62,618 bases of DNA from Candidatus Iainarchaeum sp. (GTDB lineage: Archaea; Iainarchaeota; Iainarchaeia; Iainarchaeales; VGJJ01). Below, one piece after another: positions 1 through 54,245 of the stretch; positions within the stretch are counted from its first letter, which is position 1; each line of letters begins with the position of its first letter. A model generated the notes under the pieces. It searched no databases. It saw nothing but the letters and a program-made list of their open reading frames with translations, and had not been told where the DNA came from. The stretch spans positions 1 to 62,618 of the forward strand of contig JACQJG010000013.1 of NCBI GenBank assembly GCA_016198125.1, written 5' to 3'. The translations under genes and the position numbers were made by a program.

Positions 1-2075
<2,075 letters not shown>

Positions 2076-2429
2076 AAAATCAAGTGCGTTATTGAACCTC
2101 TTTTGTTCTCAGAAAATCACTTGTTTCTTTCGGGCACTTTTCCTATGAACGACGTCATTGATTAAGCAAAGTACAGTAAAGCAAAACGCATTCGCGAAGA
2201 ATTTGAAGTTCCCCGCTTCATTTGCACATTGCCTTTGCACGTTGAATAACCGTTAGTCCTTCACACGCAAAAAAGCTTGCGTGCTGCGTTCAAAAACAGA
2301 AAGGCAAAAGCCCTCCTGAAATGAATGTAAAATTTTTTGGCAATCAATTGCCACGCGCACAATCGTTAGGCCCGTGGGGGTTCTGAAAGAATCCCCCACT
2401 GAACGCGGACCATCCCTACGCAATGGGAT

Positions 2430-2538: not shown

Positions 2539-2684
2539 TGGACTCAGCGGGATTTGAACCCGCGGCCCCTCCGACGCTTGAAGCTTTTTTTTCGGGTTTT
2601 CTTTTTCCCGAGGCTTTTTCCTTTTTTTAAAAGAAAAAGGCTCTTTTGCAAACGGAGTGCTCTACCAGGCTGAGCTATGAGCCC
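2539..2684 (-). tRNA. tRNA-Ala(TGC) with a ~72-nt intron in the anticodon loop (intron ~2575-2646)
   Basis: Reverse complement reads GGGCTCA TA GCTC AGCCTGGTA GAGC A CTCCG TTTGCA [intron] (T)CGGAG GGGCC GCGGG TTCAAAT CCCGC TGAGTCC A. It has the G3:U70 Ala identity pair and sits in the 16S-23S spacer, as is typical for archaea. Confidence 0.85.
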
Positions 2685-2808: not shown

Positions 2809-4304
<1,496 letters not shown>

Positions 4305-11131: not shown

Positions 11132-11350
11132 ATGGCCTTTACTACCTGGCGCGCTGCCTCAAATAGCGTTTCTTTCTGCGCTCGCGGCGCATCTTCTTCT
11201 TGTGCCACTTCCAGCGCTGCCTTGCCCTGGTTTTCTTGAACCGGCTGGTGTCCTTTGCACGCGTTCCCATTCCCATTCACCCATCATCAAAAAGTACTGA
11301 TTTAACGCGCACACGCGTTTAAAAACCATTCGGGTTTGGCCCGAGAATGC

Positions 11351-11363
11351 TTATATTTTAAAA
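11351..11363 (+). promoter_or_regulatory. TATA box for the sigma-like gene
   Basis: TTATATTTTAAAA lies ~20-25 nt upstream of the ATGs at 11373 and 11379, which is leaderless geometry. Confidence 0.45.
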
Positions 11364-11372
11364 CGCCGTGGA

Positions 11373-12035
11373 ATGTGCATGAAAGGAAACGTGCGTACAA
11401 AGACCCTAAAACAAGAAACGTTAAGGAAGACAAAACGCCTGGAGGTAAAGCCCATGCGTCTAACTCCAAAAGACCTTTCTTCTACTTACAATAAAGCCGT
11501 GTGGTGGGCGGTAAGAAGATACTGGCCATATCCCCCAAAAAGGACTGTTCAAGGGTATGGCATTGAGGACGTGCACCAATTGGCGGTAAGCAAAATGATA
11601 GAAGACCTGCACGCAAACAAATACGACCCTGCACGTTCATCGCCTGGCACGTGGATTCCCCTGCGGGTAAAGTCAATCATAAACAATGTGCTTGATCACA
11701 TTCATGCAAAGCACCATCCAAAACCTCTTTCCAGCAATGCCTTGCGTCTTATTCCAGACCCGAACGGGCATCCATCACGCGTAGAAGTGCAAGAATTAAT
11801 GGACGCGATAAAACAATTTCCGCGTGCAGAACAGGAGGTATTGCTGGGTTGGGCCCAGGGGTTCAGCACTGAAGAGATTGCGCATAAGCATGCACGCTTT
11901 CGAACACGCCAACGCGTGAAGCAGATTTTCCGGAGGGCCATTAACGAACTTCAATACTATTATAAAAACGGCAGGCTTCCTTCAAGCGTCGCTCAACGGC
12001 GCACAACGCAAGCGCGCATTAAAAAATCCGCGTGA
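11373..12035 (+). CDS. Sigma-70/ECF-like protein (region 2-like plus region 4-like HTH)
   Basis: IEDVHQLAVSKMIEDLHANKYDPARSSPGTWIPLRVKSIINNVLD resembles sigma region 2 (AEDLxQExF...FDPxRGSFxTWLxxIARNxxxD). FPRAEQEVLLGWAQGFSTEEIAHKHARFRTRQRVKQIFRRAINEL resembles region 4 (LPxRxRxVxxLxxxEGLSxxEIAxxLGxSxGTVKSRLxRAR). Confidence 0.5.
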   Translation: MCMKGNVRTKTLKQETLRKTKRLEVKPMRLTPKDLSSTYNKAVWWAVRRYWPYPPKRTVQGYGIEDVHQLAVSKMIEDLHANKYDPARSSPGTWIPLRVKSIINNVLDHIHAKHHPKPLSSNALRLIPDPNGHPSRVEVQELMDAIKQFPRAEQEVLLGWAQGFSTEEIAHKHARFRTRQRVKQIFRRAINELQYYYKNGRLPSSVAQRRTTQARIKKSA

Positions 12036-12054: not shown

Positions 12055-13314
12055 TCATTGTGGAGGCCACACGCTTGTACCCGGATGAAAAGCCGTCCAC
12101 GCAAACCAGAACGTGCGAATGCTTGGAACAACTGAAAGCGTTTTTCCCTTAAGCGGGCCTTCAAGACCCTGGCCTGAAAAAGACCATTTTGTTTGAGTGG
12201 CAGTGTCCACAAGGACTCCATCCTTCAACTCGAACTCCAGTTCCTGGCCATCCAATACGCGGTCAAATAATTTTATGGCTTGCGCGTCATTGCTCCATAC
12301 GACAAGAATTTTTTGACCCTTGAACGTGTCATTCACAATCCCTGTTTTTTGCACTTCCATTTCCACCCAAGCCTTAAACTGGCCTTCCAATTCAATCCCC
12401 TGCACCCACGCTTTGGAATGATACTTGGAACTGCCGGAAGCTGGAAATAGTGTGGAATCCTCGGACTCATAGTTTCCATAGGGATAACTCTCATACGTGC
12501 CAGGACTGTAAATGTCCTGGACGTTGGACAATACCTTTGTGTCAGGGTGCACTTCTTTCCACTCTTTCCACGTTGTAACGCTCAATGGAATCCATTGCAA
12601 CCGATAGCCGCTCAAAGGCCCCTGAATGCCTTCCCCTGAAATCTGCGACCAGTACGTTTCCGTTTTTCGGTCGTACATGATTAAATCGGATTGGTAGAGT
12701 TTGCCTGAAACCCCCAATTTAACGGGTTCACTTAAAACGATGCGGTGGAATGCAACGCCGCTCCCGCACAACGGACAATACGTTACTGCAAACGGTTTTT
12801 CATTTATTTCATCGTTTACAATTTCATGGTAATCCAAAATTTTTACCGGGTACGCGCGCGCTACCCCGTCAATTTCAATGCCCAGGATGCGCGCGCCTTC
12901 TTCAAGCCATGCACTGGCTTCTTGAACGCCCACGAATTTTGGCTGATCAATGGAAGGAATGCAGTCTTTGCCTCCAAAACAGCCCTGCAAAATCTCGCTT
13001 TGAGAAACAGTCTTCAAGTATTCTGTTCCACTCCCATCAATCCCGATGGCTTCTTTGCCGTACACTTTTTTTGCAGAAAATTTTTTGAAGTATTCAACAT
13101 CCACCTTCACACCTGAAGGGCTTTCCAATGTAGGCAAAGAAGAAGGTCCTATTTTCCCATTGCTGGATTGAGGGAAAACAGAAGAGGAATTGTTTGAATT
13201 TTGAGGCCCTATTTTGAGGGTTGAATCCTGGAGGACTGCAGGCGAGCCCTCAGGCGAACCCAAACACCCAAGAAAAACCAGGCCCCCCAGGAGAACAAAC
13301 AAGAGCACTTTCAT
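12055..13314 (-). CDS. DUF3179-domain secreted or lipid-anchored protein
   Basis: It has the AYPVKILDYHEIVND...VTYCPLCGSGVAF signature. The N-terminus MKVLLFVLLGGLVFLGC looks like a lipobox signal. The start is placed at Met26 of the track ORF. Confidence 0.7.
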   Translation of the reverse strand: MKVLLFVLLGGLVFLGCLGSPEGSPAVLQDSTLKIGPQNSNNSSSVFPQSSNGKIGPSSLPTLESPSGVKVDVEYFKKFSAKKVYGKEAIGIDGSGTEYLKTVSQSEILQGCFGGKDCIPSIDQPKFVGVQEASAWLEEGARILGIEIDGVARAYPVKILDYHEIVNDEINEKPFAVTYCPLCGSGVAFHRIVLSEPVKLGVSGKLYQSDLIMYDRKTETYWSQISGEGIQGPLSGYRLQWIPLSVTTWKEWKEVHPDTKVLSNVQDIYSPGTYESYPYGNYESEDSTLFPASGSSKYHSKAWVQGIELEGQFKAWVEMEVQKTGIVNDTFKGQKILVVWSNDAQAIKLFDRVLDGQELEFELKDGVLVDTATQTKWSFSGQGLEGPLKGKTLSVVPSIRTFWFAWTAFHPGTSVWPPQ

Positions 13315-13413
13315 ATTAAACCCGCGCAACCGATAAATAAATGCATTTCCCCAAATTGAAGGCAGGCCCCAAAGAGAATGGCTTTTCATTTTTTGGGTTA
13401 GAGAACGGCGTTT

Positions 13414-14268
13414 CTACGGCGCTAATACTTCACGCAACACGCGGTTCACAAAGTCCATGGGCCCGTCACCAGAGATAAGAGCATCATAACGCTCCTTATA
13501 CAACAAAAGGTTAACATTATTTCTTTCATTCAAGAAACCAATTTTCAGGACTGTTTTATGCGGCAGGCCTTCTACCATATCAATGTCTTCCAAGGAATCC
13601 CCTAACAGCAAGACATTGGGCCGGTTCAAAACCTCCTTTTCATAAGGGGTTCCCTTCACGTGGCCTTCATTCTTGCTAAGCGTGTGAATAATATGAGAAG
13701 CATTCTTGTATCCTAGCACGCGGCCTTGCGCATCCAATTCATAAAAATTGGCTAACACGTGAACGTTGGAAGTCAAGCATTTTTTTAAGGTCAGAAAGCG
13801 CGTAATCATGTCCCCAGAAGCCGCAGAAAAAACAAGCACGGGAATGTTATGCGTCTCTAGAATCTTAAAAAAGTCAATAACCCCTTCACGCAGAGGGATC
13901 AACTCTTTTTCAAGAATGTCCTCCCAAATGCCCATGTTCATTCCATACTTGTGCAAAACCTGAATATGCACACTCCACCATTCATTCATTTTTTTCGAGC
14001 GCTCAGCCAGTGAAAGACTCTGATTCTCTTCAAACGGATGATAGTAGTCAAACAACCGCTTGTATTCTCTGGCATATTCTGGCCCCAAGTAATTCCCTTC
14101 CATGACTAATTGAATGGCTCCTGGAAGTTTCTTGGCATTCACAAACGCTTTGGTGAGCGTGCTGTCAAAGTCTGCCACTACGTGCAATGCACGAGCCCCC
14201 CCTGCAACCAATGCGCGCTTTTTTTCTTCGAATGCACGCGGAGTGTACGGAACCCAGTTATTTGACAT
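13414..14268 (-). CDS. Pyrimidine 5'-nucleotidase, eukaryote-type (UMPH-1 / NT5C3 family HAD)
   Basis: Motif I is VVADFDSTLTK. IPVLVFSAASGDMI matches PVFIFSAGIGD of NT5C3, and LLLGDSLEDIDMVEG matches ILLGDSQGDLRMADG. Confidence 0.75.
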   Translation of the reverse strand: MSNNWVPYTPRAFEEKKRALVAGGARALHVVADFDSTLTKAFVNAKKLPGAIQLVMEGNYLGPEYAREYKRLFDYYHPFEENQSLSLAERSKKMNEWWSVHIQVLHKYGMNMGIWEDILEKELIPLREGVIDFFKILETHNIPVLVFSAASGDMITRFLTLKKCLTSNVHVLANFYELDAQGRVLGYKNASHIIHTLSKNEGHVKGTPYEKEVLNRPNVLLLGDSLEDIDMVEGLPHKTVLKIGFLNERNNVNLLLYKERYDALISGDGPMDFVNRVLREVLAP

Positions 14269-14494
14269 AAAATACCCCCACCCCTTTTGGGATATAAACA
14301 GACCTGATTAAAAACAACGCCGGGGTTCACAGCCCATGAAAAGGTGTATGGCCGTTATTGATGGGCCAACAGGTCAGGAAAAACAACGTGAGAACATGAG
14401 CTGTAAAGTTAAGCGTCACTTAAATCTTTTCAAAAACCAAAAGTTGGGCTAAAACCAAAACGTTAATAAATGTCCAAAACTAAAATAACACATT

Positions 14495-15064
14495 ATGACA
14501 AAGAGAAATAAAAAGGAGTTTTCATCCGAACCACATATAGAACTGCTCATCGCATTGAAAGCCCGTTTTGAGAAAAACATGAACCGCCATAAAGGCCTTG
14601 AATGGGCTAAAGTACAAGCAAAGGTGGAGGCTAATACTGAAAAACGGTGGTCGCTCAATGAAATGGAACGAACGGGCGGCGAACCCGACGTGGTTGGCCA
14701 CGATAAAAAGACGGGTGAATACATTTTTTATGATTGTTCAGCGGAAAGTCCTAAAGGCCGCAGAAGTCTTTGTTACGACCGTAAAGCACTGGAAGAAAGG
14801 AAAGAATTCAAACCCAAAGACAGCGCTGTTGATATGGCAGCCGCCATGGGCATTGAGCTTTTAACGGAAGAACAATATCGAGAGTTGCAGAAGCTGGGAG
14901 CGTTCGATACGAAAACGTCGAGCTGGGTGAAAACCCCTTCCAATATTAGAAAACGCGGCGGCGCCCTCTTTTGTGACCGCCGCTACGACACCGTCTTTGT
15001 GTACCACAACGGCGCAGAATCCTACTATGCCGCTAGGGCATTCCGCGGCGCGCTAAGGGTTTAA
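14495..15064 (+). CDS. DUF4256-like protein
   Basis: RFEKNMNRHKGLEWAKVQAKVEAN...WSLNEMERTGGEPDVV matches my recollection of the mostly bacterial DUF4256 family. The surrounding DNA is AT-rich. Confidence 0.5.
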   Translation: MTKRNKKEFSSEPHIELLIALKARFEKNMNRHKGLEWAKVQAKVEANTEKRWSLNEMERTGGEPDVVGHDKKTGEYIFYDCSAESPKGRRSLCYDRKALEERKEFKPKDSAVDMAAAMGIELLTEEQYRELQKLGAFDTKTSSWVKTPSNIRKRGGALFCDRRYDTVFVYHNGAESYYAARAFRGALRV

Positions 15065-30180: not shown

Positions 30181-30202
30181 TGTTAATGGCCTTTATGTAG
30201 TT

Positions 30203-30476
30203 GGGCTAGGCTGGCGGGTTAGCAGTCCGCTGTCACCTGAAACCTGCTTTACGCAGGAGCCGAACGCGGAAAGGCGTTGCACGTTCATGTGCAGGTCCGC
30301 GCAGAAGGCTGTAGACCTTTTGTCCCCCAAGATTGAGTGAATGGGCCAACTCCGCCAGGTTCGGAAGAAAGCAACGGCAACCCAGGCATTGAATGCTTAG
30401 GGTACACAAAAGCGAGACCCCTGTGCGGAATCACTTGCATGCGGGTATGCAACCACTTTCCGTCCGCCCACTCCAT
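30203..30476 (+). ncRNA. ffs: Signal recognition particle RNA (7S, archaeal type)
   Basis: CCAGGTTCGGAAGAAAGCAACGGCAACCC matches the conserved helix-8 motif (CAGGUCCGGAAGGAAGCAGC). The 5' GGGCTAGGCTGGCGGG is complementary to the 3' CCGTCCGCCCACTCC. It is GC-rich, ORF-free and ~275 nt. The ends are approximate. Confidence 0.8.
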
Positions 30477-53336: not shown

Positions 53337-54245
53337 ATGACAGAAAACGTGTGTCCCGAGTGTAAAAGCAAGCGTTTAACCCACGACTATGAAAAGGGAG
53401 AAGTCGTGTGCCAAAACTGCGGACTCATTGTAAACGAAGATGAAATGGACTTGGGAAAAGAATGGCGCAGCTTTGACTCGGACCAGTTTGAGGACACGGC
53501 ACGCACCGGCAGCCCCATGAAATACGTGAAATTAAACAAAGGCCTTGTAACCATGATCGACCGGAGGGGCGCAGACTCCAGGGGAAACAAGCTCAGCTCC
53601 AAAAGCAAAGCCCAAATGTACCGGTTAATCAAATGGCATAAACGCGCTTCCATTTCAAGTTCCATGCAACGCAACCTCAGCATTGCACTCACTGAACTGC
53701 GAAGAGTAGCCAGCTACTTGAACATTCCTGAACAACTCGTAGAAGCCGCGGCCTTGCTGTACAGGAAAACTGTAAAGAAAGGACTCATCCGCGGACGCTT
53801 AATCGAAGCAGTAGTGGCCGCAGTGCTGTACACGGTATGCAGGACCTATCAAGTGCCCCGCACGCTCAATGAAATGGCCGAAGCCTCGGGTTTGACCAAA
53901 AAGGAAATTGGAAGGACGTACAGGTTTTTGGTGCGCGAACTCAAACTCGAAGTACCCTTAACCAACCCCATCCACTACATTCCAAGGTTTGCAAGCGAAC
54001 TCAACCTGAGCGGGGAAGTCCAAGAAGAAGGGCGCAAAATCCTTGAAGACGCCATTGGACGCGGACTCATTTCAGGCCGAGGCCCCACCGGAGTTGCAGC
54101 AGCCGCCGTGTACATTGCCGGCCTGTTGAAAGGCGAACGGCGCACGCAAAAAGAAGTGGCCAACGTGGCAGGCGTTACAGAAGTAACGATCCGCAACCGC
54201 TACCGCGAGTTAAAGAAACGATTGGATATTGAGGTCTCTGCATAA
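53337..54245 (+). CDS. tfb: Transcription initiation factor TFB (TFIIB)
   Basis: The N-terminal Zn ribbon is CPECKS...VCQNCGLIV, followed by a B-finger region and two cyclin-fold repeats, ending ...VAGVTEVTIRNRYREL. Confidence 0.95.
   Translation: MTENVCPECKSKRLTHDYEKGEVVCQNCGLIVNEDEMDLGKEWRSFDSDQFEDTARTGSPMKYVKLNKGLVTMIDRRGADSRGNKLSSKSKAQMYRLIKWHKRASISSSMQRNLSIALTELRRVASYLNIPEQLVEAAALLYRKTVKKGLIRGRLIEAVVAAVLYTVCRTYQVPRTLNEMAEASGLTKKEIGRTYRFLVRELKLEVPLTNPIHYIPRFASELNLSGEVQEEGRKILEDAIGRGLISGRGPTGVAAAAVYIAGLLKGERRTQKEVANVAGVTEVTIRNRYRELKKRLDIEVSA

Follow-up and report, generated by a model that had tools for sequence, protein, structure and literature searches.

A protein of 220 residues encoded at 11373-12035 (forward strand) of contig JACQJG010000013.1, from the Candidatus Iainarchaeum sp. 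assembly GCA_016198125.1, belongs to the sigma-70 family with the extracytoplasmic function (ECF, group 4) architecture and is of bacterial ancestry, and its gene is native to and intact in an archaeal chromosome. The 62,618 nucleotides of this contig that were analysed are called the window below. Sigma factors define transcription initiation in bacteria, while archaea use TBP, TFB and TFE. Taken together, the results are best explained by a native and fast-evolving homologue of ECF-type sigma factors which likely serves as a gene-specific DNA-binding regulator, an explanation for which belief and doubt are about evenly balanced.

Sigma-70 family identity and genomic setting

Among curated families, the NCBIfam model TIGR02937 (sigma70-ECF) was aligned to the protein over model positions 8-162 of 165 with an E-value of 5.5e-8, and PHROG 1740 (sigma factor) matched at E 2e-6. 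A profile of the sigma2 half, built from the protein and two of its closest relatives, was then compared by hhalign with a profile of 19 bacterial ECF members and matched it at a probability of 97.35% (E 1.6e-11) over 70 columns covering regions 2.1-2.4. Furthermore, a ten-member profile from DPANN archaea, the protein included, matched solved ECF sigmas along their full length at E ~1e-15 (AlgU, SigE, RpoE and SigW). Three genomes of the family contain the closest relatives, which share 28% identity with the protein (E ~1e-7) and themselves exceed the Pfam Sigma70_r2 cut-off with 32-33 bits. An earlier sequence-only reading of this DNA had proposed that the protein is sigma-70/ECF-like and has segments resembling regions 2 and 4, and the peptides quoted for these regions were located at residues 66-108 and 149-193; its proposal is borne out by TIGR02937, by hhalign, by the Sigma70_r2 matches of the relatives and by the predicted structure.

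The AlphaFold2 model (predicted local distance difference test, pLDDT, 84.6) displays two helical domains and a disordered linker at residues 117-133, without sigma3 or region 1.1, and in this layout as well as in its length the protein has the architecture of an ECF factor. When the whole model was submitted to Foldseek, all 50 of the top 50 matches were sigma factors with a best E-value of only 2e-3, which is weak because the two domains sit differently, and an alignment per domain with VIA was used in its place. The predicted sigma2 domain (residues 27-116 in this alignment) aligned with those of E. coli sigmaE (4lup_A) and Bartonella RpoE (5uxx_C) at Z 8.3-8.7 with a root-mean-square deviation (rmsd) of 2.3-2.5 Å over 77-79 residues, and the predicted sigma4 domain with SigD4 (3vfz_A) and CnrH (4cxf_A) at Z 9.2 with an rmsd of 1.2-2.5 Å over 61-66 residues (1.2 Å over 61 residues for SigD4), Z-values of 8-9 being middling for helical domains. 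A structure prediction had also been proposed in the sequence-only reading, and on the model obtained both folds appear to match those of ECF sigmas. The elements of the gene and of the protein are the following, in positions of the window and all on the forward strand:

11351-11363, forward: TATA-like box TTATATTTTAAAA, 10-16 nucleotides 5' of the ATGs at 11373 and 11379, as read from the sequence
11373-12035, forward: open reading frame of the sigma-like protein (TIGR02937, E 5.5e-8), with alternative starts at ATG 11379 (218 residues) and ATG 11454 (193 residues, public gene call P0001)
11373-11453, forward: possible basic N-terminal arm, residues 1-27 with 9 lysines or arginines, pLDDT 55-76; comparable arms precede an LTPE motif in relatives
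11441-11446, forward: Shine-Dalgarno-like hexamer GGAGGT, 7 nucleotides 5' of the internal ATG 11454, as read from the sequence
11454-11720, forward: sigma2 domain, regions 2.1-2.4, residues 28-116, with the D66..Q69 motif (region 2.2) and a YDP....P.TW loop at residues 84-94, pLDDT ~89-98
11721-11771, forward: disordered linker between sigma2 and sigma4, residues 117-133, pLDDT 49-67, without secondary structure
11772-11975, forward: sigma4 domain with the region 4.2 helix-turn-helix, residues 134-201, matched by structure, with Pfam Sigma70_r4 only at E 0.16
11976-12032, forward: basic C-terminal tail, residues 202-220, with a predicted helix at 204-219

The frame itself was recovered in an open reading frame check. 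Bacterial ECF factors, namely E. coli sigmaE/RpoE (1or7, 4lup, 6jbq), P. aeruginosa AlgU (6in7, 8z6g), B. subtilis SigW (5wuq) and M. tuberculosis SigD and SigL, have the same succession of sigma2, linker and sigma4. Features in common are the region 2.2 D..Q, the YDP....TW loop, the region 4.2 helix-turn-helix, a length of ~200 residues and the lack of regions 1.1 and 3. In bacteria, the D..Q of region 2.2 grips the clamp coiled-coil of the beta-prime subunit of the core polymerase. D66 and Q69, its two residues, fall in the columns with the highest conservation among the DPANN proteins (85% and 79%), and the same columns are among the best conserved in the bacterial ECF set (89% and 95%). 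Also retained in the protein are Y84 and P86, T93 and W94, and in sigma4 G163, E168-I169-A170, V182 and L193. The protein departs from bacterial ECF factors in that neither a bacterial core polymerase nor an anti-sigma factor was found in its incomplete genome, in its archaeal-type promoter, in basic arms rich in lysine and arginine at both ends, in its substitutions at positions 72, 76, 101, 105, 108 and 180-181 and in an identity of only 15-25%.

Several observations weigh against this identification. A Pfam search with the sequence of the protein alone did not find Sigma70_r2, and Sigma70_r4 reached 12 bits against a cut-off of 24.1 (E 0.16). TIGR02937 itself scored 32.6 bits for a cut-off of 42.9, so that the protein stands below every curated family cut-off; an HMM search had been suggested in the sequence-only reading, and it thus returned the ECF family but left Pfam with a weak region 4 and no region 2. 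The alignment given to AlphaFold2 includes bacterial ECF sequences, and the fold match therefore depends in part on the sequence evidence; the Z-values are those middling ones given above. Moreover, the protein is altered at positions that are near-invariant in the bacterial ECF factors compared. F72V, W76I, N101S, D105N and R108D concern the -10-reading helix, and in the turn of the helix-turn-helix the G-T (180-181) is changed too. Of the surfaces that the sequence-only reading had wished to see retained, the core-binding D66 and Q69 are kept, while several residues of the -10-reading helix and the G-T pair are lost. With these points weighed, we still regard the protein as very probably a homologue of the sigma fold.

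It is by contrast very improbable that the protein is no sigma relative and merely an ordinary LuxR/GerE-type or other helix-turn-helix regulator, or that the gene is a bacterial contaminant or a chimeric join. Such a view can draw on the Pfam search of the single sequence, where GerE came first (E 0.059) before Sigma70_r4 (E 0.16) and region 2 was absent. Indeed, sigma4 is a related tetrahelical helix-turn-helix. The GerE match reaches 13.5 bits for a cut-off of 23.5 and spans 19 residues only, however, and in the search with the DPANN profile the C-terminal domains of NarL and VraR came low, sigma factors scoring far better. In the protein the helix-turn-helix follows a sigma2 domain, unlike in LuxR/GerE-type regulators where it follows a receiver or ligand-binding domain. 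The sequence-only reading had held that finding only a generic LuxR or terminase helix-turn-helix would speak for an ordinary regulator; since the sigma2 half matches the bacterial ECF profile at the 97.35% given above, this is not what was found. TIGR02937, aligned over the full length, points the same way, and together with hhalign, the archaeal markers of the contig and the bridging contigs it largely refutes both the regulator and the artefact version.

As to the artefact version, the gene is taken as native because of several lines of evidence, the first being the contig on which it lies. This carries archaeal LSU rRNA (1-2080), SSU rRNA (2809-4304) and signal recognition particle RNA (30199-30473) genes, four or five tRNA genes, and at 53337-54245 a TFB gene with TFIIB repeats (E 4.9e-43) and a zinc ribbon, as the sequence-only reading had said of position 53337. 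Secondly, the GC content of the gene is 48.4%, compared with 48.1% for the genome. Thirdly, both borders of the gene are spanned by contigs that were assembled independently from four groundwater samples, all belonging to a single study and two of them perhaps the source: the border with the upstream UbiA gene is crossed in sample X3 (record 10) and that with the downstream DUF3179 gene in samples X2 (record 5) and X4 (record 21). Finally, relatives of the gene occur elsewhere in the order, and further paralogues in the same genome. The assembly as a whole comprises 0.85 Mb in 20 contigs and is 71% complete.

Paralogues, distribution and divergence

The genome holds four further sigma-like genes, making about five in all, and three of the four exceed the Pfam cut-off for region 2 or region 4. 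L002 (contig C18, 189 residues) passes Sigma70_r2 with 38 bits; on contig C2, L001 passes Sigma70_r4 with 46 bits and L004 reaches 20 bits for Sigma70_r2; L005 (contig C8, 330 residues) has region 4 only, and ~20 kb separate it from the genes for RNA polymerase on that contig. In this last protein (locus 1219-2211, reverse strand), Sigma70_r4 is above its cut-off in the middle, at residues 185-237 (G000:C8:34852-35052), no sigma2 is recognisable, and the N- and C-terminal parts are unassigned.

Of the 215 species genomes of the phylum, 196 belong to the order of Candidatus Iainarchaeum sp., and 44 of these 196, roughly a quarter, have a Sigma70_r2 match that exceeds the Pfam threshold. The single-contig genomes G179 and G084 are among them, and none of four control archaea had such a match (0/4). 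The sequence-only reading had recommended such a survey of archaeal genomes and viruses; phage records and viral contigs gave no match to the protein, a search which distant relatives would escape, and its thought of a viral transfer gains nothing from them. A tree built with FastTree, used for nearest neighbours only, places the protein with those of G190 and G193, and pairs L002 and L004 with genes from other genomes of the family, a rough indication that the paralogue lineages predate the family. As observations apart, paired or tandem sigma-like genes share one contig at G163:C20:4912-5982, G161:C7:3061-4492 and G193:C8:24243-32991, and a frame of 491 residues in another order of the same class (G211:C75:1758-1967) reaches 85 bits for Sigma70_r2, a very strong match and much nearer to the bacterial consensus than any of the copies of the order studied here; it may be a larger sigma of group 1/2 type or a recent import.

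Searched on its own, the protein is nearly isolated. Against 1.8 billion representative sequences only three proteins were found at E <= 0.001, one of them its own product and one a truncated bacterial ECF factor (P0003, E 2.3e-4); a phmmer search against the PDB found nothing, and a search of the contigs of the genomes with its sequence found no related loci. The best bacterial matches carry PF07638, a signature of ECF factors of PVC type. Two candidate relatives were discarded, P0002, a repeat protein of 1611 residues, as a spurious low-complexity match, and L011 (E 2.5e-4) as probably a basic protein resembling a ribosomal protein.

Judged by its sequence, the gene is evolving very fast. 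The identity to the best relatives of the family is the 28% given above, compared with 75% for the N-terminal half of the polymerase subunit Rpo1N in G179 of the same family, a difference which, to the disadvantage of a functional interpretation, fits relaxed constraint as well. One could thus see in the gene a relic, decaying or without function, that goes back to an old transfer from bacteria to archaea, with a frame still open but drifting, and the three hits among 1.8 billion representatives, the scores under curated cut-offs, the loss of several bacterial consensus residues and the patchy distribution would all suit it. Such a relic is nonetheless improbable. The frame of 220 codons is intact and its fold confidently predicted, the D..Q, the YDP/TW and the core positions of the helix-turn-helix are kept, and on the rough tree the paralogue lineages are common to other genomes of the family. 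In addition, the nearest pair of orthologues, in G190 and G195, differs by 5 synonymous and 4 non-synonymous changes, and the resulting pN/pS (non-synonymous over synonymous change) of ~0.26, from such small counts, is a weak hint of constraint. The GC content is fully ameliorated, and the retention of five dead genes would be unexpected in a reduced genome of ~0.85 Mb.

Sigma-70 genes of this kind are already published. A 2018 review (PMC6126073) credits Rinke et al. 2013 with the first description of archaeal sigma factors. In a passage of Castelle et al. 2021 (Front Microbiol, PMC8204110) sigma-70 genes of family fam00359 are reported from many DPANN genomes with emphasis on Woesearchaeota, mis-binning is ruled out, no anti-sigma factors are found and the mechanism is called unclear. 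The gene examined here has in common with that set, as described there, a contig with archaeal markers, a small DPANN genome, the lack of an anti-sigma factor and the presence of TBP and TFB. It differs in its lineage, Iainarchaeota and not Woesearchaeota, and in a divergence that takes it below the Pfam and NCBIfam cut-offs; the arms at both ends of the protein and the set of about five paralogues in one genome are not mentioned in that passage. The gene is hence a new, unusually diverged member of a published group and adds little to the existence of DPANN sigma genes as such. What this copy does show is the extent of divergence that is compatible with keeping the core-binding motif, and it draws attention to two candidate features of the wider family, namely arms rich in lysine and arginine on either side of the protein and the D..Q, which is conserved better than anything else in the set. 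A literature search found no functional study of DPANN sigma-like proteins.

Basic arms, transcription machinery and mode of action

The assembly contains the genes of an archaeal-type RNA polymerase, with one Rpo1N (a frame of 891 residues) and one split Rpo2 on the same contig and one Rpo3-type subunit, and the genome has a TBP gene besides that of TFB. No bacterial-type core polymerase (beta or beta-prime) was found in this 71%-complete assembly, and no match to the anti-sigma family zf-HC2 was found in the genome. The downstream neighbour of the sigma-like gene, coding for a DUF3179 protein (12055-13389, reverse strand), is convergent, which leaves no co-transcribed anti-sigma gene and makes the sigma-like gene monocistronic; the downstream neighbours of the full-length paralogues L001, L002 and L004 are convergent as well. 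The statement in the sequence-only reading that a sigma factor has no canonical partner here agrees with all of this, as only the archaeal-type polymerase was found, along with TBP and TFB.

A factor acting on a bacterial polymerase, be it the enzyme of a host or partner cell or an unassembled one of bacterial type, would find its argument in D66 and Q69, the residues that bind the core in bacteria, and in the incompleteness of the genome. There is no signal peptide and no secretion context, the assembly lacks beta and beta-prime, such genes also occur in related single-contig genomes, and the known hosts of DPANN archaea are themselves archaea according to Castelle et al. 2021 (PMC8204110). 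We therefore judge such an action to be very unlikely.

Bacterial ECF factors terminate soon after region 4.2, whereas this protein continues into its basic tail, and its relatives L008, L010 and L038, of the same clade, have C-terminal tails likewise rich in lysine, arginine and serine. At the other end, at least seven lysines and arginines among the first 25 residues were counted in 17 of 33 DPANN sigma-like proteins, compared with 0 of 46 bacterial ECF matches and with 8.6% of 615 open reading frames of the genome itself. As a side observation, starts rich in proline, lysine and arginine (MPKPR, MPKPK, MPRPK, MPRPKK, MPRRKR and similar) are seen at the DPANN loci L013, L015, L018, L020, L023-L025, L027, L028, L035 and L036, and L002 and L004 of the same genome begin with such an arm too.

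Some points count against giving the arms much weight. The arm counts draw on related genomes, which are non-independent samples, and the enrichment is suggestive only. In the public gene calls the coding sequence opens with the internal ATG 11454 (P0001, 193 residues), a rival start supported by the GGAGGT at 11441-11446 that precedes it. And if ATG 11454 is the start in use, the N-terminal arm is untranslated. The relatives, for their part, have 11-25 mostly basic residues ahead of the conserved LTPE motif, which begins at residue 30 here, and this favours an upstream start, though it is no proof. The basic N-terminal extension of the sequence-only reading accordingly stands as far as its coding is concerned, with residues 1-27 and 9 lysines or arginines encoded, while its translation depends on the upstream ATG.

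With only an archaeal polymerase, TBP and TFB present and no anti-sigma factor found, the most likely role is that of a stand-alone, gene-specific DNA-binding regulator of transcription, which we put at somewhat short of an even prospect. The protein would contact DNA through the helix-turn-helix of sigma4, and the basic arms at both ends, which are lacking in bacterial ECF factors, would enable the free protein to grip DNA. A contact of the D..Q motif with the homologous clamp coiled-coil of Rpo1N is possible in addition, as nothing in the archaeal set is better conserved than the D..Q of region 2.2.

Such a contact is the starting point of another reading, in which the protein works like a genuine sigma, as an accessory initiation factor of the archaeal polymerase: sigma2 would sit on the clamp coiled-coil of Rpo1N, the promoter would be read by sigma4 together with sigma2, and initiation by TBP and TFB would be redirected or modulated. 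This coiled-coil is homologous to the clamp helices of beta-prime, and TFE and Spt5 make use of it. Several observations argue for this reading: the D..Q is the most conserved feature of the DPANN sigma-like set, the entire sigma2 domain is kept and not the helix-turn-helix alone, the clamp coiled-coil segment of Rpo1N is highly conserved within the order in an alignment and seems alignable with the clamp helices of bacteria, and the several paralogues per genome recall the alternative sigmas of bacteria. A mapping of the beta-prime residues that bind sigma-70 on Rpo1N, in which the two that matter most do not appear to be conserved in the archaeal coiled-coil, is not used as evidence. Against the reading, several residues of the -10-reading helix are changed in the protein, and genes as patchy as these, in 44 of 196 genomes, cannot encode general factors. 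We consider it unlikely on balance. Its more specific and general form, in which DPANN sigma-like proteins as a class are accessory initiation factors whose D..Q docks on the Rpo1N clamp in competition with TFE or Spt5 while sigma4 and the lineage-specific basic arms select DNA, is doubtful to a somewhat greater degree.

In either case a sigma family has been kept, duplicated and diversified in reduced archaea, whether the sigma fold has been re-used in a DNA-binding regulator or an archaeal polymerase is steered by a factor of bacterial type. The latter, if true, bears on the divergence of the two initiation systems, and it would mean a hybrid bacterial and archaeal control of promoters with about five alternative 'sigmas' for a 1-Mb genome.

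Promoter and neighbouring genes

The sequence-only reading described an archaeal-style TATA box with a leaderless geometry, and a box of this kind is indeed present ahead of the ATGs at 11373 and 11379. A spacing such as this is typical of leaderless archaeal genes, and here it fits a leaderless or near-leaderless transcript, as far as can be read from the letters. No RNA sequencing run was found to contain the locus, and the view of the sequence-only reading that the gene looks expressed gains no support. Comparable A/T boxes lie ~20-30 nucleotides 5' of the likely starts of the paralogues L001 and L005 in the same genome. In groundwater sample X3, three single-nucleotide polymorphisms (11345, 11348 and 11350) are clustered within 6 nucleotides immediately 5' of the box, at the position of the B recognition element (BRE). 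The contigs of the samples show a single coding variant in the gene, 11964 A>G, which changes K198 to E in sample X2.

For the UbiA prenyltransferase encoded upstream, none of the 17 other genomes of the family has a close homologue (E <= 1e-10), and a comparison of synteny fails for this gene; a UbiA gene in the vicinity of the orthologue in G190 is no more than a distant relative of it. The stretch around the sigma-like gene may therefore belong to accessory gene content. Between UbiA and the sigma-like gene lies an open reading frame for 44 very basic residues (11142-11276, reverse strand), with a resemblance to ribosomal protein L41e (Pfam Ribosomal_L41 at E 0.06, below the cut-off). Its promoter would diverge from that of the sigma-like gene within the gap of 96 nucleotides at 11277-11372. 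A piece of 36 nucleotides of this frame (11187-11222) is also found on short contigs of greater depth, 91-146x compared with ~17-22x, where it runs into unlike sequence, and its conservation therefore extends to other organisms that are more abundant in the samples.

Downstream, 12055-15064 codes for the DUF3179 protein, which has a lipoprotein-like signal, a pyrimidine 5'-nucleotidase of UMPH-1 type and a DUF4256 protein, each with a strong Pfam match. In the spacer between the SSU and LSU rRNA genes, Rfam gives a tRNA match of 146 nucleotides (2539-2684, reverse strand) that is absent from the ARAGORN output and presumably represents an intron-containing tRNA.

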